Shown: piece after piece, positions 2,303-60,490 of the stretch
Layout of the letters: each line of letters begins with the position of its first letter
How positions within the stretch are numbered: position 1 is the stretch's first letter
Source: Hydrolagus affinis
Lineage: Eukaryota
Assembly: GCA_012026655.1 (NCBI GenBank)
Contig: JAAILG010000213.1
Coordinates: 62,001 to 124,642, forward strand
Reading direction: 5' to 3'
DNA: 62,642 nucleotides
Position numbers and translations under genes: made by a program
Notes under the pieces: generated by a model
Told to the model about the DNA's origin: nothing
What the model saw: the letters and a program-made list of their open reading frames with translations, nothing else
Databases searched by the model: none

Positions 2303-2314
2303 CGCTGCCTCCCA

Positions 2315-14151: not shown

Positions 14152-14180
14152 CACCTTAATATTTTGCCTCAAATATTCAG

Positions 14181-16615: not shown

Positions 16616-16756
16616 GAAAAGCAGTTTTTTGACAACGTGTCCCTGCTGATCCAAGGGTCACTGGAAGGAGAACTCACCATTATGGACAACCTCTCAGGCT
16701 CTGTTTGCTACAACTACGCCAGCCCTCAGCAAAACAAATGCTCCATTGAGAAACAG
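16616..16756 (+). CDS. CACNA1G: Cav3.1 cassette exon 34 homolog
   Basis: 141 bp, phase 0-0; [26 protein letters not shown]... resembles human [26 protein letters not shown]. Confidence 0.88.
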
Positions 16757-17630
16757 GTTAATAATTCTGGCTTCTCTGGCAAAGTCCTGTGTTCAGACCC
16801 AGAAGTCAAAAGGAACTCAAAAGACCAAGATCTATCGAGGGGACAGTTTTGGTGTCAGCGAGATAGTGTTGAGAATAAAAGCCAGTGATATTTCCCACAG
16901 TGAGGAATGGAATCAAATCATTATTATTATTATGATAGTCACAAGCGAGAGAACCTGTGTTTGATTCCCAGGCAGGATGAAACTTTAGGCAAGTTTCCTA
17001 ACTCCAGAATTTAGTAGGAGCCCGACTGTTAGTCGAATGGAGGATCGCTTTTCTGATGTAATAATCTCTTGAAGATAAATGTCCCAAGACGACTAATTTA
17101 TTACTATTCTCGGAGCTGATTCTCAGTGCAATTCAGTGGCACGTTTTGTCTTTTGGTTTCAAAGTTACGTGGTCAAACTTCCAGCTCACACCGGGCGTAG
17201 TTTTATTGGGTAAACGTGGCTGCAGGGTTTTTCAATAACCCCACCCACCCGTGGCTTCAGTGTAGAGTGAAACATTCACAGTTAGTTTAAAACCTCGTAC
17301 CCTGAGAAATTTCCCTTGCCTGTGCCGGGCGTGTGTTACAGTCCCTCATTTGATACCGCACCGATAACATCAAAACGTGGCAATAATTCACTGTAAACCC
17401 AACTTTCCAATCCCTAGGACTATCGCAAGACAGGACTGACCCTGGCCGCTGAGGCTTGGTCTGCCAGTTAGCCTGAGGTTTCTGGGCTGGAAACGGGACA
17501 CTTTGCCTTGCATGGTGTGTGATTGCATTTCTCCATCTAGATCCTCTTGCTGGAACTTTAGCGGCTTTCAGAATTGTACTCGTTGAATGCAACGGTTGCA
17601 ATATTTTGGTTTCATTCCACGTGGTGTCTG

Positions 17631-17799
17631 NNNNNNNNNNNNNNNNNNNNNNNNNNNNNNNNNNNNNNNNNNNNNNNNNNNNNNNNNNNNNNNNNNNNNN
17701 NNNNNNNNNNNNNNNNNNNNNNNNNNNNNNNNNNNNNNNNNNNNNNNNNNNNNNNNNNNNNNNNNNNNNNNNNNNNNNNNNNNNNNNNNNNNNNNNNNN
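17631..17799. other. Assembly gap (169 N)
   Basis: Run of N. Confidence 1.
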
Positions 17800-19826: not shown

Positions 19827-19961
19827 ATCCCTCTAGCTGAGATGGAGGCTGTTTCTCTGACATCTGATATTCAGTCTGAGAAATCCTGGTCGTTAGCATT
19901 GACGGATGACTCTTTTCCCGATGATACTAATGTATTCTTGCTAAATACACTGGAAAGCAAT
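19827..19961 (+). CDS. CACNA1G: Cav3.1 cassette exon 35 homolog
   Basis: 135 bp, phase 0-0; [45 protein letters not shown]; weak donor AAT|gtacat. Confidence 0.88.
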
Positions 19962-20442
19962 GTACATATTCCAAACCTGTATTTTGCTTATCACGGGGCT
20001 CGAAATACTCTACTGTGTGTTTTATGTAAAACGTAACATGCACTTGTCGTCTATGTAGAAGTTCAAGCTATGTGTTCCCTCCACGGCCAAAAATACCATG
20101 ACCACTGCCCACCAAAACCCTGACTGACCACTCCAGTTTGAAATGTTTGAGTTGATAGTCATTGAGGGCGTATAATTGTGGAAAAATCTTGAATCTGATT
20201 GCATCTAAAACCTAATCGAATTCTCAATTTGGAAAATGGTTTCGTTTTCGGGAAATTTTGCGGGAAAAAAAATGACTTTGATTTTGAGGCTGAATTTAGG
20301 AGGTTTTTGCACAATTTTGCCCCACCTTAAAGTTTAAGGCAAAATGGTTTCACCGGGGAAGACGAGGTGAAAGTTCAGGCTCAGTATTGTTCATGAAAGA
20401 GAAGGTTCTTTTCTCTTCTTCGTGAGCAATTTTAGATGCAAG

Positions 20443-20560
20443 TAATAATAATAATAACCCTTGCATTTGATATAGCAGCTTTTCACGTCTTCTAGACGTC
20501 TCAAAGCGCTTCCCAGAATATACTGTAAAGTGAATTGACTGTATATTTGTGGGCGAGACA
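20443..20560 (-). mobile_element. SINE 3' fragment
   Basis: Close reverse complement of 14022-14135. Confidence 0.85.
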
Positions 20561-22410
20561 CAGTAATACTATTTATAGTCATTGTACTCTACAATTAATG
20601 GTATCCATGGAAGAGACTAAAATCAAGAAAAGCTAAATTATAACGGAGTGTATGGATTTTCCTTGTTGGGGTGTGATTGACAGCTGATATCTCTGGTACA
20701 TTTTCCAGTGAAAGCACCGAAAAGCCATGGGGAAATCATCTATGGCTATAAAATTCCATCCATATAGCATTGAGCTGGTAATGAATTGAATTCTGAGAGG
20801 ACAAAGAGTATTTCTAGCCCTGATTTTTATATAACCATCTGCTCCTCTTTGGCGTCCAGCATTCAACGTTTCCAAACTGTTGTGTAGACTAGTGCTTTTG
20901 TTTTGTGGCCCAACAGATCCTTGGTTGCAACCAATCTCTATCTGGATCCATTCTATCTGTTAGGTGTAGCTGTGCTTCTTGTGGTCGTCGTTCCATTGTT
21001 GGTTGACCATGACCTTCTGTGGTAGAGTTGTGTAGAGATGCTGTTGTGCTTCGATGTATTCTGGTGACCAAGACAATGATTGCTATTCCCAACCATGCTT
21101 CATGCACTAGTGGAAGACATTGATGGCACATCTCGATGCTTTAGGTCTCGTGAATGAAGAAGATGTGTTAACAGGAGCAATGGTTCTCCAGCGCAAGCGA
21201 GATTCTTTTGTTTGTTAGTCTAATGAAACTGATATCTAGTGAGTATGTGCAGAGAATCCTATTTAGTCTTAATTATAATTTTTGCCCCCGGTCTCCCAGT
21301 TCACCTGTAACTTCTCTCTCTGTTAATTGAATACTATTCTATAACAAAAATCAGAGTCAGTTCTTTTCAACAGAAAAGATGGGGATTTCAATTCAATCTC
21401 AATTTGGAGACTGGTTTATTTTTGAGAATACCGGAAGAGTGGCTTCCAAATTAAGACTGAAAGAAGGAAATGTTTTCAGACTTCTGTGTTAACATAATTT
21501 TTAAAACAAAGTGGGTGATAAAGGCAAACGCACTGGGCCACAAGCACTGCACTTGGGGGCAAGTGGGTTGAAATTCTAGTAGATGGTAGACTCTTAGGAG
21601 ATTATAACGTGGAAATCCCATTAACAGCTGAAACTGCCAATGGTGAGACACGTAATGTCCACTGTATTTTCAGCTCAAAGAGGAGTTGTTCTCCTTGAAA
21701 CGTTTGAGTTTTTCATTAATTTTGATCATTTCCAGCCTCCCTGATAATACTCAATTATATTCAACATCCAACAACTGCGCTTTTCTTGTCGGTTGCAATA
21801 CCTAAGCTCTTCCCATTGTCCTTGCCTTTCAACAACAACAACAAAAGAATTACATTAATAGAGCGCCTTTTCTTGGGGAGGATGTCCCAACTAGTCAAAT
21901 GCCTAGTTATTTCAAAGTGGTTGCATTTTAATGAGAGAAAGGAGTCACTCTTATAAGAAGTCACATGCGTCCCTCAGGAAGGTGGATGCCCAACTAGATG
22001 TTCTTATGTAAGAAGTTGACTTGTTGCATGAAGCAATTGATTGATGGAATTGGCATTGTCATGGTTCATGTGTTTCACACTGAGTCCTCCCACCAACCTG
22101 CAACCCCCCCATCCCCCCCCCACCCCCTCTCCCCCCGCTCCACCCACCACCCTCGGTCTTACAACCAGTTCTGTGTGACACACTCTGTTTCATTAGCCGC
22201 AGTGAGACTATAATGTGATCCATTGGCTTAGAATGTGTGCAGAAAAATATATCCTGCTCAGATTCCTCAGTCCCTTTTACTGTTTTGTTTGTGTTGGTGC
22301 TACTGTAGCAGTGACCTGCCGCATGCTTGTCTTTTACATATCGGCAACAAAGCTTCCTTCGGCTCGCTGGTCTCGTCCCACTGACCCTCACTTTGTTTCG
22401 TGTCTTGCAG

Positions 22411-22594
22411 ACTGAGTACGTTCAGGAGAGCGAAGTTCAACGGGAAGCTCCGGAGAAGAACCTCCTGTCAGTGAGGAGACCTTTTGTTGGCAGGACCCAT
22501 TCGTTGCCCAATGACAGCTACATGTTCCAGCCTGTTGACCCAGCTCCCTCACCAGGTCTACAAGAGTTTCACAACAGCCACAGATACCAGTCAG
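22411..22594 (+). CDS. CACNA1G: Cav3.1 exon (about e36)
   Basis: 184 bp, phase 0-1; NLLSVRRPFVGRTHSLPNDSYMF. Confidence 0.9.
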
Positions 22595-23050
22595 GTATGT
22601 CCCTGACAAAGTTCTCTGGGACTCTACTTTGCGTGCGGGACGCTATGCAACTACGAGTTGTTGTTGTTGTTCTCTTCTCTTCGGGCAGAAAGGTTAATGG
22701 TGGATGTCAGTCTGTCCCAATTGGTAGCATTCTCATGTACATGTCACAAGATCACTAGTGTTCCACACCCACTTCTGAACCCCAAAACCCTCGCCCAAGG
22801 ACACTCGGACACTGAGTGAGGAGAGGATGTCCCAAAGATGAATGGCATTGGGGGTATTAGAGTGGGCATTTGAGATGATATTTGAAAAGGAAACCAGACA
22901 GACTTTGATGGTGATTTCCGGTCCTGTATGAACTGTACCCGGATGCAGGAGACAGATGAGAGGCTTTGCATCTCATGCGCGAAGATGGGAACTGTCCTCC
23001 TTGCCCTGAACTGTACTGACTGTTTGCTGTGAATTGTCTCCACTCCACAG

Positions 23051-23220
23051 GTTCCACCACATCGGTGCAGTCACAGCCAACAGACAGTGCTTCCAACCTC
23101 CAGGCTCCTGTACAGCTATTCCGTCCAGTCAGCCCTCAGAGCAGTCTTGATGCCGAAAACATTCCCAAAATTCCTCCCCCTGTGAGGTCTGCAAGTGTTC
23201 ACAGGATGCTCCGGAGGCAG
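23051..23220 (+). CDS. CACNA1G: Cav3.1 exon (about e37)
   Basis: 170 bp, phase 1-0; GSTTSVQSQPTD...IPKIPPPVRSASVHRMLRRQ|gtgggt. Confidence 0.88.
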
Positions 23221-23629
23221 GTGGGTGTCAGGAACAGCCTCTCCCACGCCCAGGAGAGGGCTGGGATTTGCCAGATCTCTTGAAGAGCCATTTTTTGTCA
23301 AATTAATTTATTCTCGGCTTCCATTTATACCCCATAGTCCAGAGTCGTTTATTAAGATAATGCTTTGCACAGTTTTTTTTACAGTATGGTACAGTATTGT
23401 ACTTTATTTTACTGTATCGCACAATGTATCGTATTGAGTTCTATTGCACCTCAAACTCCAACAGCCCCAAATTGGTTCAGATGAAGAAAGCTCTTTGGCC
23501 CATTTGATTTCATCCTTCCAGAACATCTATCCTACCATCTTTGATGGTGACGCGCTGTCCTGCATGAGGGACATCGTCCCGACGCTATACAAATGTAATA
23601 TTGTATTAACCCTCTGTGGTGTTAATACT

Positions 23630-23885
23630 CTACCCCCAACCTCTGGAACTCCATCCCGCAGTTCCTCTACCTCGCCCCCCCACCCCCTCCCTGGCCTCCT
23701 TCACGTCCCGCCTCAAGACCCTCCTCTTCGACAGCCCCATTGGCCACTCCAAATCCCTCCCTTTCCCTCCACCCTCCCCGTCCCCAGCTCGGGTCTGAAG
23801 CAATGACTGTCCAGCGCCTTGTGACGTCCTCCTGACGTGAGAGGCGCTGTTCAAGTGTAATTTTGTTATGATGTTGATGTTGTTG
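23630..23885 (+). mobile_element. L2 LINE 3' end
   Basis: ccccaacctctggaactcc...ctcaagaccctcctcttcgac...gacgtgagaggcgctgttcaagtgtaattttgtt tail. Confidence 0.7.
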
Positions 23886-23961
23886 TAATTCAGGTCCACG
23901 CTAACCTGTTTGGCCTGTTTTGTTCCTCTTACTCTCCCCGACCTTTAAACACCCAACTCAG

Positions 23962-24816
23962 GTGGCTGTGACCAATGAACCTCTGGAACCACTGTGTGTG
24001 GAGCCTAAGGAAAGCATGCACGTGAAGCCTGGTGAGCAGCCTCCGCCTTCCAACGTGTCTGTACCTCCCGTGACTGTTTTGCAACCCTCTGTGGTGTTGG
24101 TTCCTGCTACACCCAAAGCACCGAACAAACACAGCATCCACATCCAGCAGCACAGCCACAACCAATGCAACATCACTAACTCCGCGTCAGCCTCCCCGCA
24201 TCTCTCCAGGAACCCTTTCCAGGAGGTCCCCGACCCGGCCGACCAGGAAGTCTCTCAGATCAATAGCGGCAACAAGAGACCCTCTAGGTCGCCTCTGTCC
24301 CCTCCGCTGCCCATGAAAAGCTGCAGCAGCACAGGGAACCTCACAATGAAGGACATCAAGAGGTTCTACAGTGTGGACACCCAGGGATTTTTGGCCAAGC
24401 CGGTGTCGTGGTCAGATGACCCTCGGAGACATTCGATCGAAATCTGCTCATCTGTTGACGTCAGCCCGCCACGTCATTTTCCTTCCTCGTCTTGTGGCCT
24501 GATCACCCAGGGAGTGACAGAACTGGAAGGCTTACAAACGTCTCGCCAGAAGCAGAAAATGAGCCCACCTTGCATTTCTATAGACCCCCCAGATGAGCAC
24601 CTCAGAACAATACAAGGGTCGCACGGGCAAACTAACGCCGACGGCAGCATGTGTCTGAGAAGGCGGGCTCCGTCCTGTGACTCAGTCCCCCACAAAGACT
24701 CTGGGGAGCTTGTGGACCCACTGCTTCCTGAGGTCACCCCTGCCTCCCCTTCCCCAATCAGAGATTTACTGACTCTTCCCAGTTTTTCCTTGGATCAGCC
24801 TGAGGTGGACCACTGA
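23962..24816 (+). CDS. CACNA1G: Cav3.1 terminal coding exon (about e38)
   Basis: KDIKRFYSVD, RRHSIEI, KMSPPCISIDPP and CLRRRAPS match Cav3.1 C-terminal motifs; TGA ends at 24816. Confidence 0.88.
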   Translation: MAVTNEPLEPLCVEPKESMHVKPGEQPPPSNVSVPPVTVLQPSVVLVPATPKAPNKHSIHIQQHSHNQCNITNSASASPHLSRNPFQEVPDPADQEVSQINSGNKRPSRSPLSPPLPMKSCSSTGNLTMKDIKRFYSVDTQGFLAKPVSWSDDPRRHSIEICSSVDVSPPRHFPSSSCGLITQGVTELEGLQTSRQKQKMSPPCISIDPPDEHLRTIQGSHGQTNADGSMCLRRRAPSCDSVPHKDSGELVDPLLPEVTPASPSPIRDLLTLPSFSLDQPEVDH

Positions 24817-41958: not shown

Positions 41959-42180
41959 GAGCTCCTGTGGCTCAGTGGTTAGAGCACTTGTCTTGCAAGC
42001 TTGGAAGACCAAGCTGGGGGAGACCCGTGTTCGAATCCAGGCAGGTCAGGGCGAAACCTTGGGCAAGTTTCCTTACTCCACACACACATGCGCGCGCCTA
42101 ATAATAATCCCTCCAAAAAACAACACAATAATATAAAATTGGTCATTTCAATCCAAAAGCAGGAGCCCACAGCAAAGCTT
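41959..42180 (+). mobile_element. SINE 5' part with intact Pol III A and B boxes
   Basis: TGGCTCAGTGG (41968-41978) and GTTCGAATCC (42029-42038), followed by the SINE body gaaaccttgggcaagtttcc. Confidence 0.8.
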
Positions 42181-42349
42181 TGCCGGCCCACAGCAAAGGT
42201 TAACAACCTGATCCTTCCACTGTAAACAACATTATTCTATGGTGGACTTCACCCATTTACGTTATCTTTCTAGACGGAGGCGCAGGCAGCTGTTGCACAA
42301 TTCATTTGCGGGGTCCCCTCAAGAAAGTATTTTCTTAAAATTCATATTA

Positions 42350-42549
42350 CAGTGAAAGCTCGTTTATCCGGCACCCGATCAACCGTAACTTCCGTATAAC
42401 CCGGCACCTCAAAAAAAAAAGGTCCGCATTCGATTAACCGGAATTTATCCGGAAAAATGCTTTTTTCTTTCGTTTTCGGCCGAATATCCGGCACGCACTT
42501 TAACCGGCACTGGCCAGGTCCCGAGGGTGCTGGATAAATAGTATTAATG
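42350..42549. mobile_element. Tc1/pogo (Tigger-like) MITE
   Basis: ta|cagtgaaagctcgtttatccggcaccc ... gggtgctggataaat imperfect TIRs; internal repeats of (t)ccggcac. Confidence 0.55.
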
Positions 42550-42730
42550 TTACTATTAATATTGCTTTTAGTATTACTATTAACGTTAGTATTAGTGTTA
42601 GTGTTACTATTAGTGTTAGTATTAATGTTAGTATTACTGTTAGTGTTAGTATTACTGTTAGTGATAGGGTTACTATTACTGTTAGTATTAATGTTATTGT
42701 TAGTACGACTGTTAGGGTTAGTATTACTGT
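42541..42730. repeat. Low-complexity tandem repeat (tagtgt/tagtat/tactgt units)
   Basis: Direct reading; directly adjacent to the FDXR exon 1 donor. Confidence 0.85.
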
Positions 42731-42735
42731 CTCAC

Positions 42736-42817
42736 CGGGAAGGTGCTGCCTGTGGAGGCCGACGCCCCTGAGGTAAACCCCGGCCAGGAGAGAGCGGACA
42801 GCCCGGGGGGTCCTCAT
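42736..42817 (-). CDS. FDXR: FDXR exon 1 (mitochondrial transit peptide)
   Basis: agcaccATG; MRTPRAVRSLLAGVYLRGVGLHRQHLP is Arg-rich with no acidic residues; G|gtgag donor; the 12 exons total 1482 nt = 493 aa plus stop. Confidence 0.85.
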
Positions 42818-43768
42818 GGTGCTGGCGGGAAGGGAGGGAAAGCTGCTATCCCGGTTATCCGATCGCTCCTCGCTCCTTCCCCAACCCACACACACACTGA
42901 CCCACCGACCGACCGGAGTGTTAGTGACAGGAGAGAGGGAGAGGAGGAGGAGGAGGAGGGAGGCCGTTTATCACACACGCATACACACAGAGCAAACACA
43001 CACACACACACACACCCGCCCAACTGGGCGGGAGAAGCGCCCGCCCAACCCGCCCAACTTTGCACAACATTACATTACACAACCCGCACAACACTGCCCC
43101 CTCCCGCCCAACCCGGCTCCCGAGTAGCGCCGGCGAAGGAGAGTGCGCGTGCGCCGTGGCTGCCTGGCGAGCCGAGGGGCGGGCTGTAGGGGTGGGCGCA
43201 CGTGATAGGCCAACAACAACAACAGCAGCGGCGCCAGCCCCCGGGGGCGGTTGGTGGAAGAGCCGTCACCATGGAGACAGGGGCCTGACTGACAAGGCGG
43301 CCCGACACCCTCTCACTCCTCCCTCTCACACACAACACACATACACGCACAAAACACTCCCTCCTTCCCTCCCTCAGGTAAAAAAAACTTTTTTATACCT
43401 TACAATTGTTTTTTGTAAATAATAATAATCGGTACATTAAAATAATGATATAATAGTAATAACGATAACAAACGGGTTAAGGGGTGGGGGGGGTTAGAAG
43501 CGGGAGGCGGCCGTCGAGAAAAATCAATCCTTTGTCCAATTCCTGTCAGCTCCGGCCTTCCTCTCTCCTCCCTCCCTCTCCCCCCCCTTTCCTCCATCCC
43601 GCCTCTCTCCTCCCCCCCTCCCCCTCCCATCTCCGCCCTCCCTCCCTCCCTCCTTTGTCTCCAGTCACCGCGAGGCCCGGTTTGCGGCCTACACAGCCTG
43701 GGATTGGAGTGTGAGCGACCGAAGGCGAGGGCGTGAGTCAGCGAGTCTGGAGAGCTGGCAGCTTTGGA
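42740..43768. promoter_or_regulatory. CpG island, probable bidirectional promoter for FDXR and the RAI1/TCF20-like gene
   Basis: High GC and CpG density; NRF1-like TGCGCGTGCGC at about 43144, GC box at about 43176, E-box CACGTG at 43199-43204. Confidence 0.7.
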
Positions 43769-43918
43769 NNNNNNNNNNNNNNNNNNNNNNNNNNNNNNNN
43801 NNNNNNNNNNNNNNNNNNNNNNNNNNNNNNNNNNNNNNNNNNNNNNNNNNNNNNNNNNNNNNNNNNNNNNNNNNNNNNNNNNNNNNNNNNNNNNNNNNNN
43901 NNNNNNNNNNNNNNNNNN
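43769..43918. other. Assembly gap (150 N)
   Basis: Run of N. Confidence 1.
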
Positions 43919-44069
43919 AGCCTGAACTGACCGGCACTTCTTCATTATTTGCAGGAAGACGGGTTTTGTTTTGTTGTGTTACATTGTGTTTCTACTGAGG
44001 AGAGGAGGACACTAGAGGCTTGAGGAGGGGGCGGGGGGGGGGAGAAACGATACAATCCCAACTGTTTAG

Positions 44070-48345: not shown

Positions 48346-51300
48346 ATGGAGTCAGGACAGGATCAAGCTGATGGGTTGCATAACCAAAAAGACAACTTGG
48401 TTCATTTTGACATCCCTGTGGATTATTCTGTTGATTGTGCAAGAAAACAAAGAGGAAGAATACAGGCAAATAAGTTATTCGAACTATCACCCACAGATAC
48501 TCAATATAACATGTGCACAAAAAACACACCTAGTGATTTAGAGACCAATTTGGCATTTTCTGTATCTCACACTGACCAGATGCACGGGGATGACGCGATC
48601 TCAAGTATCACCGTCAACTATGTCAACCAATCTCATCTATTTCCTTCCCAGAGGACAATGCGACATTCCTTGCACGAGCAACAACTGCCTTCACTCTTTA
48701 TTCCATCTGTTTATGTGCAAGCACAGCAGATGCTGCCAGCTCCATTTGAGCCCTCTGTACCTACTGATTTTGTTCATCCATCATATGAACACTCTGTGTT
48801 GGCACAATCTAGTGAACTGGAAACTATTAAGAGAGGCCTTGCAAATGAAATAGAATGTAGTACTATGAACCAGCACTTAATGACGGAGTTGGATTTCGAT
48901 TCACCATTAGCTGCTGCTACTGTCTATGGATCTGGATCGTGTAGTGGATCACTTGAACAGGCGTTTGACACAGCTGAGGAAATTTTACATGGGGAACCGA
49001 GTAACATGGAAGCCCAGGATTTGGTCTGTCAGTTTTCTGGAGCAATTAATCACACAGATGAGGGGGATAATATTGTCAGTCCTGCTGAAACAGTGGTTCA
49101 AAACCCTGGATTACTCGTAAGAAAACTAACTGGGTCTCTGGCCCCAGAGGGCAGACCGAACAACACAGAACAGCACGACAACAGAAACCTGCTGGGCAGG
49201 GTGGAACATTGTGAAACAAGAAATGGTACAAGTATGTTCACTGAAGTGAAGTGTTTAAGTAAGCAGCAAGCAGAGAGAAAACATCAGCCTGTACACGGCT
49301 TCGACTTGAGCAAGAGTTACAAAGATCAGGCGACCACGAGAGCAGAAAATGCAGTTGAGTTTTCTGAGGAATCAGTGCTCGTCGAGTCAGAGGAAAAACA
49401 AGACAAGGATACTCTTGATAAAACTTGGCCAGAAGATTCGGCAGAAGGGGAACAAAATATTTTATTAACTCGTCATGTAAATATAAATTCTTCAAATTTT
49501 ACCCAACAATCACATAGTTTAAGTATAGATGGTTACCAGAGGATGTGCCAAAATAGTGCTGGAACCAATATGTCATCAACATGTAGACTAGTACCAAATG
49601 TAGAGACGGCACACAATATGCTGAATAGTTCAACCAATGGTAGAATATTTTCAAACACTGCAGTTCTTCAAAATATGCAAAAAACTAACAGTTCATCACA
49701 GGTTACACAAACTGGAGAGCAATCACATGACCAAGAAGCAGCTTTAACATCTGACCTAATGTATAGAGAGATGCCTTGTTCAGGGAATGATGCCACAAGC
49801 GCTGAAAATAGCAATGCAGATCAGGTCAGGTACAATTCAATAGAAAGTCATATTTTTCCACATAATGCAGATCTTAAACCAAATATGAAAATAACTGAAC
49901 ATTCTCTGTGTAGTGAGAATAGCTGCTGGGAAGCAAATCAACAATGTTCTACTGTTGATGAAACCGATGCTCCTTCTGTAGTCAAGCCGAATGTGAATGA
50001 AATTTCTAATTCAATGCAAGTAAATAACAGTGTATGTGAAAGCAGTAGAAGTCCAGCTTCATTCAGCAAAGTAACTGTTCTCTCATTACAGAGCCCTGAG
50101 AATAACCTGCCTAGGGTACAGCCTTGTTCTCTCAAGTTGCATAAGCTGAATGTTATTGAAACTGATGGGAAGTGTGATGTGCGAGGATACGTCATTGATC
50201 TGAAGACGAATGATGTTACACCAATGTCATGCAGTATTTCAATGAGCCTTTCCTTAGCCAAGTCGAGAGAAAGTGCTGGCTGTGTAGGGGAAGGTGAGCT
50301 TGATGAGGTTTGTAATGAGAAGGGTGGCCAAAGCTCTAGTGGTGGTGATGAATGTGAAGAGTCGCCAGCCCCAGGAGGGTCTCATCGTCCCAGCAGGAGA
50401 AAGCAGACTCTGGTGACGAAATATGAGGATGAAGAAGTCATTTACATCTCTGATATTGAAGAGGATGATGTTAGTCGACCTATCTCCAAAACAGACACAA
50501 GTCAAAATCAAAGTACATCGTCAAATAATAAAAAACGGAGGGCAGCTTGTCAACAGCATTTAAATCAAAATTCTAAAGAGAAGAGGGACGGCAATCCTAA
50601 TCGAAAGGTTTTCGAAAGGAAGATTCTTCCAGCGAGACAGAGAAGAGGAATGAGATTGGAGCAGATCGTCCAAAATATTATTACACAGCCGAAGTCTAGA
50701 GTGTCCGGTAATGTTGGGGAACGACACAGAAAAAGCCGGAATACACCTCCTACTCCTACCAGGTTTCAGCCACCGAGGCGAAAATCCGGCTCTGCCGCTA
50801 AACAGAGGGCGAATGGCGATGCTGGGATTTCTCATAACTTGGTGGTTTCCCTCAAGGAAAACCTTGCTTTGGAATGTTCATTGCAAGGGCAGAACGAAGC
50901 ACATTTATGGCAAGCAGATTCAGCAGCTGCAGAAAAACAGAACAAAAACACATCTACCTCAACTCCAGGCTCTCGCCAAGAACATGCAACAAAACTAAGC
51001 ACTCCAAATTCCCCCGCCACATCCTCCTGCCCTGCTTCGTCTTCAAAACGATCAAACGAGAATTACCGAGAGGGGCCTGCTTCAAGAAAGCGTGGTGACT
51101 CTGATGCTAAGTGTTTAAATGGTAACGGAAGTAACTCCAGACAATGCTCCAGGAAGGCTGGTGCACTGTCACAGCAGAAAACCTCCCAACCAAGGAGAAG
51201 AGCTACCGGGAGAAAGAGACCATGCAAGTCAGCAAGTCGGAAGCGAAATAGGCAGCGGGGTCTACACTCGTCAATGTTTGCTCCTGATGAGCCTGAAATA

Positions 51301-52017
51301 CGGTTAAGAGCATTGACTCTGAAAACTGATGACAGACGGGATGGCCGATATGATAGTTTTTCACCTTATGTAAGACTAGAGGTTAAAGATTATGCAACAT
51401 GTACTGTAGTGAACTATCCTGAGGAGGATAACAACAACCTTAAGCAAAAGAAACATTCCCAACACCAATCTCATGGTTCAGTTCCCAAATCATCTTGCTT
51501 GTTACTGGGCCCAACTATTCATGACACTCACCAAAAAAGCTTTCTGATCTGCTGTCTGTGTGGCCATTCTGCAAATGCTAAGGAATTAGGTGATCTTTTT
51601 GGACCATTTTATCCTGTCGGGTATACCCTTCCAAATGTCCCAAACTCACGGACAAAGACAAAAATGAATATAGATCAAACAAATAGTAATACCTTTAGTT
51701 CTAGTTGTAGTTCCCCTCAGAATGCAGTACATACAACTTTGGGAGAAAATCAGGAATCTAGTACAAGGGAGGGAACAATAACTCGAGGACAGAAGCGAAA
51801 AAGTTGTGATAGTATTGAAGAGTCTGCAAAGGGTCCAGATATTAAGAAGCCTAACAATGAGCTCTCGTTGGAAGATTGGTACCAGCCGCCTTTGGTCCCA
51901 ATGGATACTAATGAACACTGGATGCATGAAGACTGTGTGACATGGTGTGCTGGTGTTTTTCTTGTGAGAGGAAAGTTGTATGGTTTGCTGGAAGCTGTCA
52001 ATCTTGCACAAGAGACG
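48346..52017 (+). CDS. RAI1/TCF20-family ePHD chromatin protein, giant first coding exon (1224 codons)
   Basis: Acceptors end at 48318 and 48323; in-frame TGA at 48325 upstream of the ATG; motifs GMRLEQIVQNI, EPEIRLR, FSPYVRLE, CTVVN, CCLCGHSANAKELGDLFGPFYP, EHWMHEDCVTWCAGVFLVRGKLYGLLEA; donor ACG|gtaagt. Confidence 0.92.
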
Positions 52018-53499
52018 GTAAGTGGGGTGGTGGAGGGAGAAATTGTTATATTATGCAACTGTAAATACTTTTTATTGCATATGTTGAGACTTGTATTATT
52101 CCTTGAACTTTGATTACTCATGATAGTAGTGATGCTAACGATACAAATGTCAAAACATTCAAAAGCTATCCTTGTGGAGAAAGCTACAAATAATGCATTG
52201 AATTATTTGCGTTACATTCAGCTTTGCATAATTCAATCAGCTGCTTTTCATCTAGTCCACATGAAGCCCTGCTAAATTTAGTCAATTTTACCTCATATAT
52301 TGTGTAATTAAATTTAAACGCAACGCAGTGAAAACAATACAATTGTCAAGGCATCGTACACCTTAGGAGGAACAAAGCTTCCTGAAGGAAAAAAATTACA
52401 AGTCTACTGAGGCTCCACTTGTACACTTGTCACTTTCATTTTCTATTCCGCCTTTCATGATTGAGGACTTCTCAAGGCACCTCACAATACTTACAGTAAA
52501 GTGTAGTGTCTGTGTATTTTGTAGGCAAACGTGGGTATATCTTTCCTATCTGCCCTCAGACAATGACATTTTGCTAAAGCTGGGATTCCATCCTAAAATA
52601 TCTCCCTGTCCCACACAGGCCATTAAGCAATGCCGTAGGAGGTTCACAACTAGAATTTGAGATGTCTCTTCATTTCAGTATTCCTAATAACCTCAGTTTA
52701 AAATAGTGGAGTCAGTAATTCAATGAAGTAGTGCAGTTACATTCTCATGTGCTCCTATTCTGTGGTGCAGTGTGTTGGTGCTTCAGTGAGAAAAATACCT
52801 AAAACATGGAACAGGCAGTTTCCTGTTTTCTTTGATAAACAAAGTAGAATTTATATTAACTCTGAAAGTGAAAGTTTATCATAAATTTTCCGAAATCAGG
52901 ATGCTCTTTGGAAGCAATGGAATTGTAAAACTGGAATAAAGTTCCTTGCCCCTATGTCCCTTAAATCTGCCAATGCCTTATGTTCTTGGTGCCTTAGTTC
53001 AAGTAAATATGGTAATTATCTTGTTATTTTGGAGTCTAGCCATTGCAGGGAAGTGCAGCTGGACTTTTGTAGTTTCTGATTGCCTGATCCCTAGCTTTTG
53101 AATCACACAGGGACAGGCAGCCTTGCTTGCTTCTTTTTAGTTGAATTTGTGTGGAACCATGTTGTCACAATCTATTGTTTGAAGTTGCTTTGAATAGATA
53201 CAGTCCCAGTAGAAATTCTGTTGTAGTCAGTAGAAGAGCTCAAACTATGATGTGATGAATGTCTGATCAGAGCAACAGATTTGCCAATCCCCGTGAGATT
53301 GTCATAATTAAGCTTGACTATTATTTCTATGTCATTTGAATTAAATTTGGGCAGATCATGGCTACCTCCATTTAATACAGAGCTCAATTTTTTTTTACTT
53401 TGTGAGCAGTTCTCAAGTTAACAGTAAATATCTGAGATATTATTCCACATTCTCTATCCCTTATTCCTTTTTTTCCCTGTGTTGTTCAACTCTGATCTG

Positions 53500-53965
53500 T
53501 CCAGCTTTCCCACACCTCCACAACATTACCTCCCTCCACCACTACCTCTCCACTTGGGCCCTAACACCCTTATCAATGCTTTCTTCATTCCCACGCTAGC
53601 CTACACCAACTCTGCTCATCTAACTTCCCAACTCTTCTCTCCACAAGCTGTAGACCAACCAAAACTGCAGCTTGTGGCCTCTCCCGCATTAGGCTCTAAT
53701 GCGTCCGCGTCCGCGCCCAGCTCCGCTGGCTCCCATCCTCAGAGGATTGAATTCAAGATCCTCATGCTCACTTTTAAATCCCTCCAAGGTCTTGCCCAAG
53801 CTTAAATCCCACCAACCCACATGTGCCTTCAGTTCTGCTGTATGCCTCCCACCTTGCCCACCCCACTATCAGTGTCGAGTTTTCATCTCCCCCACTCTCT
53901 GGAACTCCATTCCAGAGTTCCCCATCCCTCACCTCCTTCAATATCTGTCTCAAGACCTTCCTCAG
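53500..53965 (+). mobile_element. Degraded L2 LINE 3' fragment
   Basis: PNTLINAFFIPTLAYTNS and QRIEFKILMLTFKSLQGLA motifs. Confidence 0.7.
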
Positions 53966-54994
53966 ACTTACTAAATAGGTGGGTAACCTAGGAGTCAGGT
54001 TGGACTTACAGCTGTCTTCAGAATGTTAAGTTTTGCATCCTACAATATTTATTATTTAACAATCGTCTCAAACAGTTGAAATGTTAATAAGCTTGTGCAG
54101 TATGATTGTTAGCACACAGTAATAACTGAACAACTAACTAAAATAGTTTCTGCACTGAACATCACAATTGTGTGATGCTTTAACTGCTCCTTTCATTGAA
54201 CGGTAGCTTATTGTGGCAAGCCTGGAGCTAATTTAGACCACCCAGCTGCCTCCCATTAAGGCCACTCACCACCATGCCAATGTCTCAAAACAATTTATCT
54301 GATTTTAGTGTATCGTGATTGTGTATTTCCAGGCATATTTGTTGATTTAATATCCAACCAGTGATTATCTCGGTGGATGGGAGGGGTACCCAAGGTCTCC
54401 TTGTGGTTTAACTAGTTCCACGGTAACGTGCCTGATAATGGAATATTGACTGTAAAAGAATCCTGCAGCCGACTTGGCTGGTGGTCCTGAGCTAGATAAC
54501 TGTGCTGTTCCCAAATAACTGTATATAATAGATCGACCACCTAGCTCAATGGCAGGACTTGGAGAGGTTGACTATCTTGTTGGGTGGTCCTAGCTGGTCC
54601 CAGACAGTATTAGTATTGATGATGGCACCCCATGCAGTTTTCTCTGGTTAAACTCCAGCACTATCCAATGCATGCTCTGGAGTTCTCCTGACGTGAAAGG
54701 CGCTTTACAAATGTAATTTTGTTGTTGGGGTCCTTAGTTAGGCCTTGACTTTTGCTAACCATGCCTAATACAGTACTTTCCAGAATTGGGTAAGATGTGT
54801 GCATATTTCAATCTTAATTTGGAAGCTAACTTTTAACAACTGCACAAAACTGGCTTCCAGAATCTGATAGGGTTACAGATATTGCTGGGATTCTGTACTG
54901 TTTGAAAATGCAATAGTCTCGTAGGCCAAGCCAAGGTGTTGTTTCGTATCTTTAGCTTTTCATACCATTCTAATGCTGACCTTTTATTCAACAG

Positions 54995-55088
54995 ATTTGC
55001 TCCAAATGCCAGAAAACTGGTGCCACTTTAGGCTGCTATTTTAAAGGTTGCCCTCTTAAGTACCACTATGCCTGTGCTGTAGAAAGTA
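54995..55088 (+). CDS. RAI1/TCF20-like coding exon 2 (PHD finger)
   Basis: 94 bp, phase 0-1; [31 protein letters not shown]; A|gtgagt. Confidence 0.92.
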
Positions 55089-55901
55089 GTGAGTATCTTT
55101 CTGTTGTTCATCATTAAATGGTTTACGATAAGGAAGGTAAATGTTTGTTGTGCTGGAAATAATAAATCTTTTAATCTGTAATTAAAATCCCATTCTTTAA
55201 TCCCCAGTGGCTTCTTATTTGTATTTAGCAATATTTTAATGTCATTTTCATCTTCTTTTGTGCAGTTAATAAAATTCCAATTTGCAAATTCAATTGCGAA
55301 TGGGCAAAACAAATGGGAATTGTAAAGCAAATAAAAGTGAAGAATGGATCATATCTCATTTTAGCTTTGTCAGTAACAATATTTTATGCATCTTTAACAG
55401 ATCTTTAAGTAAATTTCCAAATTTTAGGGTTTCATTTGAAGTATTTGACGAATATTTAACATGACTAAATCAGTATTTGTTAATTTTTTTTATTGTGTTT
55501 TTATTTTGTTTGGTGAATTAATGTGACGGAAGTCAAATGATTCATGGCAAATTAATTTCAGTTACTGAAGAATATAAAGATAGTTAAAGTACACCCACAG
55601 AACCTGCAATGAAAGATTGTGGTTAACAGTTAATTGAATCTGTGCTGATGTATGATGTGCCAGGTGCTGTGATCCATTCTTAAACCATTGTTGTGTTTTT
55701 ATCTACTGAAAATTGACACTTGTTTGCTGTGAAGCAGTGAATTTTATCTTTCTACTAGTCTTGTTGTCTGTGGCCCATCAACCTGCATTTGGGCCTCTGC
55801 AGTTGCTGTCCTGAATGTTTGTTCTAATTGGATATAATAACAAAGGCCTCTATTTGTTTTTTCTCTATCCTGATTGGCTTCTATTTGTTTTTCTACTACA
55901 G

Positions 55902-55951
55902 AATGTTTGCTAAATGAAGATAATTTCTCAATGAAATGTGTAAAACACAAG
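55902..55951 (+). CDS. RAI1/TCF20-like coding exon 3 (end of PHD)
   Basis: 50 bp, phase 1-0; KCLLNEDNFSMKCVKHK|gtaaga. Confidence 0.92.
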
Positions 55952-56619
55952 GTAAGATGAAAGTGCAGTTCACTTTGCATTTCATTAATTTTTTGCTCTG
56001 TTAGTTAATTTGCGATTTCAAAGGGCCAGGATTCAAAGCTGTGTCCGCCTGCTCTTTATGGTTAAGCACAAGAGCACTGAGGGAGCTCAGACCACGTTTT
56101 AATCCTAAACTTGTAGATTCTAGTACTGTATTAATACAATGCCTAAATAAACTTAAAACATGTTTTGATAATATTGCAGTGTGTCTGCATAGGAACTACA
56201 TTCTTATTTGACTACCTCTGTGTCTTCAAACTATTTGTATATACAGTACAAGAGTCCTGTTATAACATCACATCCTCCCGACGTGAAATGTGCTTTATAA
56301 ATGTAATTTTGTTGTTGTTGTATAACATGGTAGTTTGGGACATAACATCCAAACCAGCCATATAATGAGATGTGATCACCAGTCAGTGTTTCTTTATTCA
56401 GATTTCAGGTGCAGTGAGATGTAAAGCTACAGTGATTGTGTCAATATATTGGGCGTTGTCATTTTGTTTTAATGTCCTGAATGTGATTGACATTTTCCTC
56501 CTTGTGTACCAGTCAAATTAGTTGATCCCTGGGGGCATCTGAGGTGTGACAATGTAAGATGGGATTTTAGAATTAAGAACCACATGGAAAATGATAAATT
56601 TTTCTTCCTTATGTCCCAG

Positions 56620-56667
56620 GACAAAGTTCTGAAAGGATCAGTTTCAGCAAAAGGAGAAAGTAGGTGA
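56620..56667 (+). CDS. RAI1/TCF20-like last coding exon
   Basis: cccag|DKVLKGSVSAKGESR*; resembles the TCF20 tail NKTAKGSLSTEQSERG as recalled. Confidence 0.75.
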   Translation, partial: DKVLKGSVSAKGESR

Positions 56668-56880
56668 CAGTGACGCTGCAGCCTAAATTTGCTTCAGCTG
56701 TAAGTATATCCAATGATTCAAATAATTGCCTAGTCGGTGATGGCATCTTATCACCTCTTCAAAATGTCTCAAAGCGCTTTCCTGTAAAGTTAAAATTGAT
56801 TGTATTTTGTGGGAAAAATGTACATTTTTGGCAACCAATGGTTTACCAGCTAACATTCTCCTAATATTTCTCTCCTACAG

Positions 56881-59800
56881 TTTGAGATGGATGTCCTATT
56901 TGAGGGAGAAATAAACTTGCATGTTGCTCTTGCAATGAAGCTAACGGAAGATACTGACAGAGAACACTGTGGTCTCCCATGCCCTTTATTGCAGCCGTTA
57001 TGCTAAATAGAAATTGGTTCACATTCATACTTCCAAGATGACTCTACTTCATTTAAGATTATTTTTCCGTTCCTGTTCTAGATTTTATCTGCATTGTCTG
57101 TCTGTGTGCTTTACTCCAGAATTCAGTAGAAATCCACTACGTTTACCAGAAGAAGCCACAACTGCAGGTTTGTTTCAAGAAGACGAGCCTGATGTTCATA
57201 GTCCGATCAGAGCACAAACTAGAATAGAAAGTGATCTAGATACCCAGTACATTAGTTCCTATATAGATATTGCTTCCATGTGTATTGGCAGGGTTGAAAT
57301 GACCAGTGGTCCTGCTTGAGATGTATTACGTACATTTAGAATATTTATACATCATGGTATCGTGCTCTAATGTACATCATGATCTAGAATGCCCTTGCCT
57401 GTAATGGAGAGTACTTGTAGCACCTGAATTTCTCTCATTACTTTGTAGACCTAATTATATGTGCAGCATTGACCTATACGAACAGTCTTTCTAACTTGCA
57501 CTTGTGACCAGTGTTCTGCTGTTGAGATGAGCTAGCGTGGCTTGGCAGTTCACATCATGGTAATGTTGATAATAATCTTTGCATTTGATATAGCGCCTTA
57601 TCACATCTTCAAGACGTCTCAAAGCGCTTCACCCAATATAATGTAATGTGAATTGACTGAATTTGTTGTGGGTTAAACGCACAGCAAGGTCCCATAAACA
57701 CTCGTGGACTGAGTGATGAAATAATTTTTTTTGAAAGAATTATTACTGAGTTAGGTTAATTATATATGATTCAGTCATTGTGCTGTGACCAATTGCAGTC
57801 GACACCTTTTGGAAAAATTTAATTTAAAAAGTATGTCAAACAGCTACTAAACAAAATACCTGCTCGCTGAGATCTTCTAATACACTTAGTCCTGAAAGTT
57901 CTTTTGGAAAGTTGTGCTGTTCAATGGGCAATCCCACAAAACTCTGTAATCCTTTTCATTATAAGCAGTGATTTCTTATACTCCCATTTCTACTTTTATT
58001 TCTGTACTTTTTGCATCATCTCTTATCAGATTGTTTATGAAGTTATCGTTTTTTTAAAATCCTTCTGACATTTCTGATTCAAAATGATTTTATTAATTGG
58101 ATTGAGCCATTCGTGTATACACTGGTACAAATGACTGGTTAGCAACAATGTTGGACAGCCATTTATTTAAGGATGGCTTTGACAACCATAATATGGACTA
58201 ATTTAAAACTCCCACTGTAACCCATGTTAAACTAACAAATTTAAACATATTGGTCACCTACCTTTTTAATAGACCAGTTTAGTTAAGCCCAGAAGTGCAA
58301 TTTTCTTTCCATGAATCTGATGTGAACTGTGTGAATTATGTTAAAGGCTGCTTTGGTGAGCAGATAATGTTGCATCTGTTCCTTTATCTTCACAATGTCC
58401 ACCCTCTGGGGTCTTGTATAAATTTACGCAATGTTATTTTGCTGTATTAAGCGCTCAGATAGTGCCCTGCATGAAGGGTGTTATATAAATGCAAGTTGTT
58501 GTTGTATATGTTTGGAATAACTATAGTAGGACCATCTAGCAGCAGTTGCACAATTTATTTTATATAGTTCTGTGAAAATAGCTAGTTACAAGGAGTATGA
58601 ATGAGCAAGCCTAAAGTGTTACCTCTTTGTTTTCCCTATCTTTTATTCTGTTTTATTGCCATATTCATTCTTTCCGGTGTTTCACTTTGTTTTCCCTTTC
58701 ATCTATTTTCCTCTCATGGCAATATCTTCCACTCTTTTAAGGCTTCACTTGCATTCCTCCTCATACTTGCATTGCATGCTGTAACAGTAGGGAAGTGTAC
58801 CGTTAGTACTAGCAAAACATCTTACCATTGAGAGCAGGGTCTTTCAAAGACCGATTCATGTGGAAAATGAATAGCTATTTATTAGAAGTAATTTGGAGCA
58901 TATGGCCCGACGGGAATAGAAATAGGTAAAATTGCAGAGGGGATGTTGTTTAACGTTGAGGTTTAATGCAGTTATCAGTAACTGCAACAGGTTTTGGATG
59001 TCAGTTGTGTAGGGCTGTAGCTTAGTGTGAGTCTCATTGGATTTTTTTTGGCCAGCCGGGTGACTCTACACAAGTAGAAACCCATCACCGTGCTTAAACG
59101 TATCCAAACCAAGTTGAAATTTCCATGCGTCCAACCTCCAAATGGAAATCCCAGATAGATGGTCAGAATGGAATGTGCACTCTCCCTGGATGGACACAGC
59201 CAGGCGTGACACACCGTGGAGCCAGTTCAGAGACCCCACTTACTGGATGTTTGAGGTAACCATAGTTTGAACCACTTTCTCTGAATGCTTACGGTGTTTA
59301 GCTATTACTTTGTATTCAGTTATCAAAATGGGAAGCAGGCTGAAAACAAACCTGCATGTATGGTAGATGCAAAAACAAATGAGTCTGTTTAATGGGGGGG
59401 AGAGGGGGTTAAAACAGCGTTTATAAATGTTTTTGAACAATTCACATTTTCTGTTTTCCTTCCATCACTTTGTCAATGTATCTGAATTGTTCTGAAGAAC
59501 GTTTACAAATGTTAGTATAGTTTTGTGTTGTAGTTAGCTAGGCATTTTAAGGCAGTTTGCATGTTATCAGCCAAACCACCATGTACGTCACTGCATTTTC
59601 CTCATGGCAGTCTCTCCTGTGCTGACCTTTGATTTTACAAATGTTTGGATTTTGCTGTGACCTCTGTGCAGAAATCGATCTGTTAGCAGCAAGATTCTTT
59701 CTTCATTTCCAGTGCTATCTGCATTAATGGCTTACTTACCTTGTCCCATTAGTTTTTTTTAAGTGTCAATGTGAATTGCTGTATCAGATCAGACAGACAC

Positions 59801-60490
59801 CATTCACACTATTCCCATTGCTATTGATACTGGAGTCTTTAGCAAAGCTTATAACAATTTCAGCTGTGCTTTAATGGGTTGTTTGTTTCATGCATTGATT
59901 CATAGCAGACAGGAAATGCACCTATTCTGGGCAGATTGAGGGAGGGGGAATAAGACCAATAAAGAACATATTAAAATGGATTTAAACGTTGTACAGCTGC
60001 TTTGTGAGCAGACTTGCAGTACATCCTCCTGCTTTATGTAATTAAAAATGCAGAACTGTTCCACTGCAGATTGTCGCAAGAAGCAAACAGTGATTGAAAG
60101 CTCAGCAGGCGGAAGCACTGATTAGCACCAGAGGTCTCTGGGAAACATTCGTTCATTACCTTTTGTTGACAGAACAGGAGCCTCTTCTATTGGTTTCCTG
60201 TAGAAAACCTTGCTGAAAGGTCAAGTTCACAGCTTGCGATTGAATGGCGTTTCACATTCTGTTTTGTCCCCTTTGTGCTGGCCACTGGTCTTCAACTGAA
60301 TGAACTGTGAGGATTGTTTTTTTAAACAAACAATTCTCATAAATTGGGCTGCAAGAATTTTATGCTTTTTTTTAAAAAAGAAAAACAGCCTTGATTCAAG
60401 TTGATAGTTTCATGTCATTTCTGTATATTTCTTTCCATGAATAAAAATGAGCAGGTTTTGGAAATAAATCTAACAATGTTTGTGTGAGAT
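56881..60490 (+). other. Probable non-coding terminal (3'UTR) exon of the RAI1/TCF20-like gene
   Basis: Donor gtaagt at 56700, strong acceptor ctaatatttctctcctacag ending 56880, AATAAA at 60440 and 60463. Confidence 0.45.
57568..57730 (-). mobile_element. SINE fragment
   Basis: aataatctttgcatttgatatagcgccttatcacatcttcaagacgtctcaaagcgcttcac. Confidence 0.8.

Follow-up and report, generated by a model that had tools for sequence, protein, structure and literature searches.

The DNA analysed here is a 62,642-nucleotide stretch of the Hydrolagus affinis genome (the window), which carries a third gene of the RAI1/TCF20 family together with an adrenodoxin reductase gene and part of a T-type calcium channel gene. 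An earlier note had described the family gene as an intact 4-exon coding sequence of about 1287 aa, and the rebuilt model agrees, with 4 exons encoding 1287 aa that start with MESGQDQ, zero internal stops under the standard code, and GT..AG borders at all three introns (3/3). The features lie along the window as follows.

1..24816, + strand: T-type calcium channel gene, 3' part; CACNA1G is the best reading from exon match scores
34981..42817, - strand: FDXR (adrenodoxin reductase) neighbour, limits approximate (E 6.9e-21 to adrenodoxin reductase)
42001..44000, no strand: CpG-rich region (CpG observed/expected 0.70-1.04)
~48319-48324, + strand: splice acceptor of exon 1, ahead of the ATG at 48346 (RNA contigs of a relative begin at 48319/48324)
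48346..52017, + strand: exon 1, giant coding exon, aa 1-1224 (open reading frame and splice rebuild; one-strand RNA cover from a relative)
48589..48642, + strand: clade-specific motif, aa 82-99, inside the acidic N-terminal half, absent from RAI1/TCF20
50611..50685, + strand: diverged family box, basic then LE..VQ.I, aa 756-780 (profile match)
51211..51258, + strand: basic stretch, aa 956-971, likely a nuclear localisation signal
51274..51426, + strand: E-box region, aa 977-1027 (alignment across all three clades)
51478..51615, + strand: F-box with zinc ligands 1 and 2, C1069 and C1072 (alignment, model match)
51871..52017, + strand: start of the extended PHD (ePHD) core after a 121-aa loop, with W1192, H1194, C1197 and W1200 (alignment)
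54995..55088, + strand: exon 2, 94 bp, PHD ligands 5-10 (linked to exon 1 by a contig of transcript type)
55902..55951, + strand: exon 3, 50 bp, ligands 11-12 (same size in H. affinis RAI1)
56620..56667, + strand: coding part of exon 4 and stop codon (matches the C-terminus of the Callorhinchus milii orthologue)
56668..60480, + strand: long 3' UTR of ~3.8 kb, probable end (one-strand RNA depth up to the 60073-60600 bin)

The open frame of exon 1 begins at 48328 with an in-frame stop just 5' of the ATG, and poly(A) signals lie at 60440 and 60463 in the 3' UTR. The 1296-aa C. milii orthologue agrees with this model in where it starts and ends and in its exon content, at 89% identity over the whole protein. 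As the earlier note had also claimed, the exon architecture is that of the family, since the 94-bp and 50-bp exons are present in H. affinis RAI1 as well and the end of exon 1 falls at one and the same alignment position in the three H. affinis family loci. Pfam returned zero matches to exon 1 alone. The protein is ~650 aa shorter than RAI1, in line with the proposed difference of more than 600 aa. The MQSFRE start given for both RAI1 and TCF20 applies to many bony vertebrates, though not to H. affinis, in which RAI1 starts with MESFQD and TCF20 with MQSYSE.

The third gene is transcribed from the + strand in a close relative of H. affinis. Stranded reads of that relative cover exon 1 at a depth of 6-27 on one strand (+), with 0-0.2 in an intron bin, and a contig links exon 1 to exon 2; this RNA evidence comes from relatives of H. 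affinis, with the raw reads drawn from one sample. The protein is also under constraint, as seen in a rough pN/pS of 0.33 (from 35 listed differences) and in its identity to a shark protein, which reaches 91% in the last 87 aa and 62% overall.

Three loci and three clades

Searches of the H. affinis genome found exactly three family loci, with RAI1 (contig C17174) and TCF20 (contig C16150) each residing apart from the third gene. A fourth match (C2895, E 0.57) was set aside as chance; its translation reads as Bassoon/Piccolo-like, and we take it to be a giant exon of that kind. Trees recovered the third clade with support of 100/100 (52 rows) and 100/99 (43 rows, invertebrate-rooted). Each of the three clades follows the jawed-vertebrate phylogeny and holds both cartilaginous and bony members, the third including cartilaginous, ray-finned, and lobe-finned fishes. 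The single invertebrate homologue (amphioxus C3Z7L5, Drosophila CG5098), which shares the long-loop ePHD, is the outgroup to all three, and the vertebrate clade (96/92 in the 43-row tree) places the duplication after amphioxus and before the split of sharks and bony fishes. The order of duplication is moderately supported (RAI1+TCF20 85/84; RAI1 itself 85/75 to 93/81). AU tests rejected the grouping of the cartilaginous-fish third members with RAI1 (p 4.6e-5) or with TCF20 (p 1.3e-7). Thus, the claim of a distinct paralogue, orthologous to neither gene, is upheld by the clade, the loci, and the AU tests. The idea of a shortened and diverged RAI1 or TCF20 orthologue, which might be supposed from the exon sizes and C-terminal blocks in common and from the NCBI names ("transcription factor 20" or "retinoic acid-induced protein 1") that several members bear, is already refuted by the tree and by full-length RAI1 and TCF20 elsewhere in the genome, and the block identities also speak against it (53% to its own RAI1 and 48% to its own TCF20, versus 63-69% to the coelacanth, lungfish, and gar third members).

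The distinctness of the gene had also been argued from a mixture of RAI1-like and TCF20-like segments, an argument that fails: 53 conserved C-terminal columns are common to all three clades, while one is confined to the third clade and RAI1 and none to the third clade and TCF20. Such segments are therefore ancestral states, and a mosaic or gene-conversion origin is ruled out by the same counts.

Conserved tail and altered front half

All of the extended-PHD zinc ligands had been said to be present, and 12/12 were indeed located (C1069, C1072, H1194, C1197, C1226, C1229, C1238, C1243, H1248, C1251, C1268, H1271). The domain ends Cys4-His-Cys2-His, as in the RAI1/TCF20 (SPBP) family, and the 121-aa loop from C1072 to H1194 agrees with the family hallmark of >100 aa between ligands 2 and 3 (PMC3799622). 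Two tryptophans are likewise at their family positions, W1192 two residues before ligand 3 and W1200 three after ligand 4. PF13771 scored above its cut-off in the C. milii orthologue, and residues 97-305 of a predicted model match the PHF6 ePHD (Z 14.4, rmsd 1.9, 110 residues). A search for a solved RAI1 or TCF20 structure found none, the best sequence matches being the KMT2D and PHF6 ePHDs. Judged by sequence, the third gene also keeps the E-box nucleosome-binding region, the homologue of which binds the nucleosome and histones in RAI1 and TCF20 (PMC3799622). The third clade has 16 conserved C-terminal residues of its own, so its binding surface could be changed.

RAI1, the Smith-Magenis/Potocki-Lupski gene, resembles the third gene in its giant exon and 94/50-bp exons, E-box, F-box, long-loop 12-ligand ePHD, and lack of an AT-hook (53-55% identity over 179 block columns), but it has a clade and locus of its own, four N-terminal boxes, and a Q/Y-rich N-terminus, whereas the third protein is acidic and lacks the boxes. 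TCF20/SPBP has the same C-terminal modules (48-56% block identity), but it carries an AT-hook and N-terminal boxes, both missing in the third clade. An AT-hook profile scored <1 bit in 24/24 third-clade rows, versus 53-57 bits in 16/16 TCF20 rows, and at the position of the TCF20 AT-hook the H. affinis third gene has none. A profile search found the four RAI1/TCF20 boxes absent from the third clade, and the ancestral SL.ALSSQV-type box, which amphioxus, RAI1, and TCF20 retain, is lost. Gone as well is the Q/Y/G/S/P-rich, prion-like N-terminus of the family; the invertebrate homologues have both an RGRP AT-hook core (6/6) and a Q/S/P-rich N-terminus (5/5 measured), unlike the third gene. The N-terminal half had been called unrecognisable, but it does contain the clade motif at aa 82-99 and the diverged family box at aa 756-780; the latter scored 17.8 bits with a profile made exclusively from RAI1/TCF20 rows. 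An ESM Atlas search with the N-terminal motif gave zero usable matches. Judged from its sequence, the third gene keeps the chromatin-binding tail while the front half of the family is replaced by an acidic one.

Probable origin, distribution and probable loss

The third gene probably arose in the genome duplications of early vertebrates, a reading drawn from its date (after amphioxus and before sharks and bony fishes split) and from one neighbour, the T-type channel. The channel exon scores favour alpha-1G (168 bits, versus 113 for 1I and 109 for 1H), although the tail exon, one of the two exons tested, favours 1H (67 bits versus 51 for alpha-1G). The adjacency of the channel gene, with that of FDXR, fits a whole-genome-duplication origin. 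The CpG-rich region is likely a head-to-head promoter common to the third gene and FDXR. Because the contigs carrying H. affinis RAI1 and TCF20 are 16-17 kb, any T-type channels beside them are not visible, and a search for other T-type channel genes found one more locus only, which is partial. A suspected SREBF1 exon beside RAI1 had zero PDB or Pfam matches. Duplication of one gene or of a segment, before sharks and bony fishes parted, is a rather improbable source, since all three copies date to one narrow interval, the third gene adjoins one of three T-type channel paralogues, and, in an excerpt of PMC7263693, TCF20-like, RAI1-like, SREBF1-like, and T-type channel genes lie together at a lake trout locus; in its favour, the branching order is weak and a literature search found zero papers on a RAI1/TCF20/third-gene paralogon.

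Members of the third clade were found in chimaeras, sharks, rays, bichir, sturgeon, gar, teleosts (two copies), coelacanth, and lungfish, and all three paralogues are held by Pristis, Rhinoraja, Mustelus, Narcine, Scyliorhinus, Latimeria, and Protopterus. Tetrapod absence was assessed in protein collections clustered at 50% identity. Among the best 150 of 1523 matches of an exhaustive profile search, 84 fell in the third clade, 18 in RAI1, 29 in TCF20, and 19 outside. None of the 84 is a tetrapod protein, the 70 that are unnamed all nest among teleosts in the tree, and the lobe-finned branch consists of coelacanth and lungfish only, even though these same 150 matches included RAI1/TCF20 of axolotl, frog, lizard, and mammal as well as invertebrate homologues. 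Thus, the gene was likely lost on the tetrapod stem; it had been proposed as lost in mammals, but the loss appears to be tetrapod-wide. A word-index search adds little because it missed even the coelacanth member, and ESM Atlas taxa for the clade are given at phylum level only. Tetrapod copies that are unannotated, fragmented, or too diverged to appear among the best 150 of 1523 matches seem improbable, if slightly less so than a lone duplication: giant amphibian genomes are annotated unevenly, but the best 150 run down to invertebrate homologues at 146 bits, far below coelacanth (647) and lungfish (1024, itself in the profile).

Retention of the third paralogue spans >400 million years. The same pattern of retention and loss is reported for Pdx2, Kazald, and an extra Pax6, ohnologues kept by fishes and lost in tetrapod lines, and such duplicates form a familiar category, which limits the surprise. 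Unlike in those cases, the surviving sisters here are dosage-sensitive human neurodevelopmental genes. The published picture has two vertebrate genes arising from one duplication (PMC3799622, repeated in PMC6393995), and a third paralogue that persists in every major line of jawed fishes, including the nearest kin of tetrapods, alters that two-gene history. It was undescribed in the literature searched, in which coverage of subscription papers is thin.

Proposed role and naming of the third paralogue

RAI1 and TCF20 bind PHF14 via the ePHD (bioRxiv 2021.10.12.462922; PMC11728296), and the H. affinis genome has PHF14, one exon of which is 100% identical to its C. milii counterpart. By analogy, the third protein is plausibly an alternative subunit of the PHF14-HMG20A complex. 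It would be a mostly disordered nuclear co-regulator imported by its basic stretch, with an E-box that would attach to the nucleosome core in the manner of its RAI1/TCF20 counterpart and an F-box predicted to fold back across the 121-aa loop and complete the extended PHD. This domain would dock on the PHF14 PZP domain, by homology, making the protein a third, interchangeable subunit. Runs of a complex prediction for the C-terminal 312 aa of the C. milii third protein and the C. milii PHF14 PZP, made without alignments or controls, gave 0.00, 0.54, and 0.00, which we count neither for nor against binding. Given the lost AT-hook and prion-like N-terminus, and an acidic N-terminus with a motif of its own, the protein would draw in different partners and would probably be less prone to condense. 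Alternatively, it may have left the PHF14 complex to act as a solo nucleosome-tethered acidic co-activator or competitor. The loss of the SL.ALSSQV-type box, AT-hook, and prion-like N-terminus and the clade-specific conserved residues around the ePHD lend this some appeal, but the lost parts are N-terminal, while PHF14 contact has been mapped to the ePHD region at the C-terminus, the best-conserved part of the protein, and we regard such a departure as unlikely, though less so than hidden tetrapod copies.

We consider it quite probable overall that the locus holds an intact, transcribed third RAI1/TCF20 paralogue that was born by genome duplication, was lost on the tetrapod stem, and would act in the PHF14-HMG20A complex. 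As a natural variant, it would combine a chromatin-binding tail with the absence of a prion-like N-terminus, and in zebrafish models of Smith-Magenis and TCF20 syndromes the two extra paralogues could compensate. A bolder and doubtful extension is that fishes equip the PHF14-HMG20A chromatin complex with a third swappable subunit, which shares the ePHD dock of the other two but has an acidic, non-condensing N-terminus and acts as a buffer for, or a competitor of, RAI1 and TCF20, and that tetrapods, having lost it in the move from water to land, were left with two dosage-sensitive subunits. In that case, two as yet unstudied paralogues would be masking what zebrafish models of rai1/tcf20 disease show, and the third protein, as a natural deletion mutant, would separate chromatin docking from phase separation.

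The third clade also exposes a scrambled annotation of the family. Entries named si:dkey-94l16.4 or si:ch211-165g14.1, automatic names in fishes, sharks, and coelacanth, are third-gene orthologues; the C. milii entry of the si:dkey-94l16.4 type is 92% identical to H. affinis in the C-terminal region, and the coelacanth entry is also named si:dkey-94l16.4. These are uncharacterised predictions, and the literature searched held no papers naming them. In the databases, the clade is either left unnamed under "si:dkey-94l16.4" or mislabelled, with fish third-clade genes labelled TCF20 or RAI1 and shark RAI1 often labelled TCF20.

Gene model, expression and constraint

We rebuilt the window gene that belongs to the RAI1/TCF20 family (48346-56667, +; automatic name elsewhere, si:dkey-94l16.4), and the four-exon coding sequence reported in an earlier note was recovered with identical coordinates, a 1287-aa product and GT..AG boundaries at all introns.

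Exons of the rebuilt gene model
48346-52017, +, exon 1, coding
54995-55088, +, exon 2, 94 bp
55902-55951, +, exon 3, 50 bp
56620-56667, +, exon 4, coding

The open frame of exon 1 begins only 18 bases 5' of the ATG, and so there is no earlier in-frame start within this exon. The protein retains 12/12 extended PHD (ePHD) zinc ligands, as the same note had claimed, together with both diagnostic tryptophans and a loop of 121 aa that separates ligand 2 from ligand 3; the ligands, tryptophans and long loop are selection criteria in the accessible text of Darvekar et al. (PMC3799622). In stranded poly(A) reads from one sample of a related species (X21, X22), depth was 5.7-9.0 and 17-27 in exon 1 bins and 0-0.2 in an intron bin, with the exon 1 first mates on the minus strand (plus ≤0.4), which fits a plus-strand transcript of the gene. 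Read depth extends to ~60.5 kb, where two AATAAA signals are located, and the exon 1-exon 2 joint is present in one contig from another relative (X13), which we guess to be RNA. Among the 40 listed of 651 differences, 35 were coding (16 silent, 19 not), yielding a rough pN/pS of 0.33, while identity to the shark Heptranchias was 62% overall and 91% across the last 87 aa. Very abundant short interspersed repeat copies, which match many RNA reads, sit in the introns and 3' UTR (at about 44500 and at 45300-45640, 47500-48150, 54640-54730, 57570-57660 and 58470-58510).

A third clade beside RAI1 and TCF20

The top database match was Callorhinchus milii 'si:dkey-94l16.4' (92% over the C-terminal query, 89% overall), which identifies the source as a chimaera-type cartilaginous fish. 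The 120 listed of 122 matches also include proteins from sharks, rays, bichir, sturgeon, paddlefish, gar, bowfin, teleosts and lungfish, under names as varied as 'uncharacterized', 'transcription factor 20' and 'retinoic acid-induced protein 1'. Names in the databases are scrambled: RAI1 orthologues of sharks and rays carry the label 'transcription factor 20', and third-clade genes of fish go under TCF20 or RAI1 (P0056, P0139, P0162, P0164; P0017, P0022 and others). Searches of the Hydrolagus affinis genome with different blocks returned the window locus plus the separate RAI1 and TCF20 loci that the note had proposed looking for. Contig C17174 encodes at least 1942 aa with 94-bp and 50-bp exons as in the window gene and groups with RAI1; C16150 has a giant exon of 1492 aa with an AT-hook, its small exons lying beyond the contig end, and groups with TCF20. 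This TCF20 (L007:4718-9214) is short and evolves fast; its branch is long, and one motif of the nucleosome-binding region (E-box) is eroded. A fourth match (C2895, E 0.57) is unrelated to the family; its 2611-aa open frame (L009:579-8411, -) has long glutamine runs and presumably resembles the giant exon of Bassoon/Piccolo. All three genes also occur in each of a sawfish, two rays or skates, two sharks, coelacanth and African lungfish.

Using 179 alignable block columns (long loop excluded) from 52 chosen rows, the tree resolved three clades, namely the third clade (23 rows, 100/100), TCF20 (16 rows, 100/96) and RAI1 (13 rows, 93/81), each split into cartilaginous and bony fish. In a 43-row tree that used nine invertebrate rows as the outgroup, support for the third clade was 100/99, and RAI1+TCF20 was its sister with moderate support (85/84). 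AU tests, run only after the tree was known, rejected forcing the five cartilaginous-fish third-clade members with cartilaginous-fish RAI1 (p 4.6e-5) or TCF20 (p 1.3e-7), the groupings that the earlier note had set against its own proposal. The gene is thus, as proposed, a distinct paralogue and an orthologue of neither. The supposed mixture of RAI1-like and TCF20-like segments instead reflects ancestral sharing, as 53 conserved columns are common to all three clades, 1 is shared with RAI1 only and 0 with TCF20 only; 16 are third-clade-specific. We are nearly certain that the gene is genuine and intact, that relatives express it, and that it is a third paralogue. One 1815-aa record (P0242) falls outside the three clades, weakly sister to the third (82/73), and retains an SL.ALSSQV-type box and RGRP core; it may come from a jawless fish or represent a fourth duplicate.

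In its accessible parts, Darvekar et al. describe two vertebrate clusters, with coelacanth and zebrafish given TCF20 and RAI1 only (Table S3, PMC3799622), a picture repeated in the available text of PMC6393995. Our literature search for the third gene and its locus names, mostly of non-subscription papers and excluding large supplementary ohnologue tables that may list the gene, found no paper. Since automatic pipelines collect the clade under a single zebrafish clone name, it is already annotated but without a description in the literature searched.

Probable origin and loss

FDXR lies upstream, head-to-head with the third-clade gene over a CpG-rich stretch. The interval 42001-44000, between the presumed FDXR start (~42817, -) and the third-clade gene, includes a candidate splice donor near 43378 and is possibly a shared promoter. 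A T-type calcium channel gene is also upstream, best read as CACNA1G (168 bits vs 113 and 109), with a tail exon leaning to alpha-1H. We take human TCF20 and CACNA1I to be both at 22q13, and RAI1 and CACNA1H to share one chicken chromosome. Given the timing of the duplication and the T-type channel gene beside it in the window, the third-clade gene likely arose in the vertebrate genome duplications. TCF20-like, RAI1-like, SREBF1-like and T-type channel genes are neighbours in the accessible part of a lake trout QTL paper (PMC7263693). Tail-to-tail with RAI1 on C17174 is an open frame (L013:2822-3274, +) for which PDB and Pfam gave no match; it presumably resembles the last exon of SREBF1, in which case the contig would mirror the human RAI1-SREBF1 arrangement. 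Within the window, 60500-62642 at the end of its contig is AT-rich and lacks coding frames; it may hold the 3' UTR of a neighbour on the minus strand.

We searched 1.84 billion cluster representatives, without a word index, with a profile built from 13 slow-evolving third-clade proteins and obtained 1523 matches at E 0.001. Of the best 150, 17 were already known, 131 were placed by a FastTree tree and, for the 2 without blocks, the assignment came from BLAST (bichir, 89%; a cyprinid, 80%), for totals of 84 third clade, 18 RAI1, 29 TCF20 and 19 outside. The tree contained 71 new third-clade rows from these 150, 70 among teleosts and one the coelacanth gene; ten of the 70, picked for long branches, comprised nine teleosts and one without a name. 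A tetrapod member should outrank the axolotl, frog, lizard, tenrec and tree-shrew RAI1/TCF20 and the mollusc, echinoderm and amphioxus matches found among the same 150. Thus, the loss in mammals suggested earlier agrees with these protein clusters, in which no third-clade tetrapod row was identified among the best 150 of 1523, but it probably extends to all tetrapods, on their stem, although clustering at 50% identity could in principle conceal a member.

A rewired N-terminus and a possible place in the PHF14 complex

The third-clade gene adds to a known family a member whose N-terminus is rewired. Profiles of four N-terminal boxes built from RAI1/TCF20 rows found none in 24/24 third-clade rows (best 7.5 bits), whereas one box is present in amphioxus (29.9 bits) and was therefore lost in the third clade. 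The AT-hook profile scored 53-57 bits in 16/16 TCF20 rows vs <1 bit in every RAI1 and third-clade row; the RGRP core occurs in 6/6 invertebrates and, outside the hook context, in two third-clade rays. A mid-protein basic box is retained, though diverged, in 20/24 third-clade rows. A clade-specific N-terminal motif reached ≥50 bits in 18/24 (16 of these 18 built the profile), was weak in coelacanth and lungfish, and was not found by this profile in the second teleost copy, RAI1 or TCF20. Over the first 350 aa, Q+Y+G+S+P+N made up 35-41% in 10/10 third-clade proteins, vs 53-64% in 11 RAI1/TCF20 and 56-61% in five invertebrate proteins, and D+E 11-16% vs 4-7%.

For the C. milii C-terminus, AlphaFold2 gave a model with a mean pLDDT of 57, mostly 70-86 in the PHD and the segment carrying zinc ligands 1 and 2 (F-box) and <50 in the E-box and loop. 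Model residues 97-305 align with the PHF6 ePHD (Z 14.4, rmsd 1.9), which predicts that the F-box bridges the long loop to complete the domain. In mammals, the E-box region binds nucleosomes and histones (PMC3799622), and the available text of two further sources (bioRxiv 2021.10.12.462922; PMC11728296) describes binding of the PHF14 PZP domain by the RAI1 ePHD, RAI1 and TCF20 as possibly mutually exclusive subunits, and a prion-like TCF20 N-terminus. PHF14 was found in the Hydrolagus affinis genome. By analogy with these data, the mechanism we moderately favor as most likely is that the third-clade protein would be a third exchangeable subunit, its PHF14 dock unchanged, bringing a different effector end to the complex; that it has instead left the PHF14 complex seems less likely to us. 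The second teleost copy (si:ch211-165g14.1 type; P0058, P0060, P0075 and relatives) is about 700 aa and has lost the mid-protein box along with the clade-specific N-terminal motif, so that almost the C-terminal module alone is left, and the lungfish protein (P0019, P0026) has a much expanded middle, at 1931-1940 aa vs 700-1300 aa in other fish.
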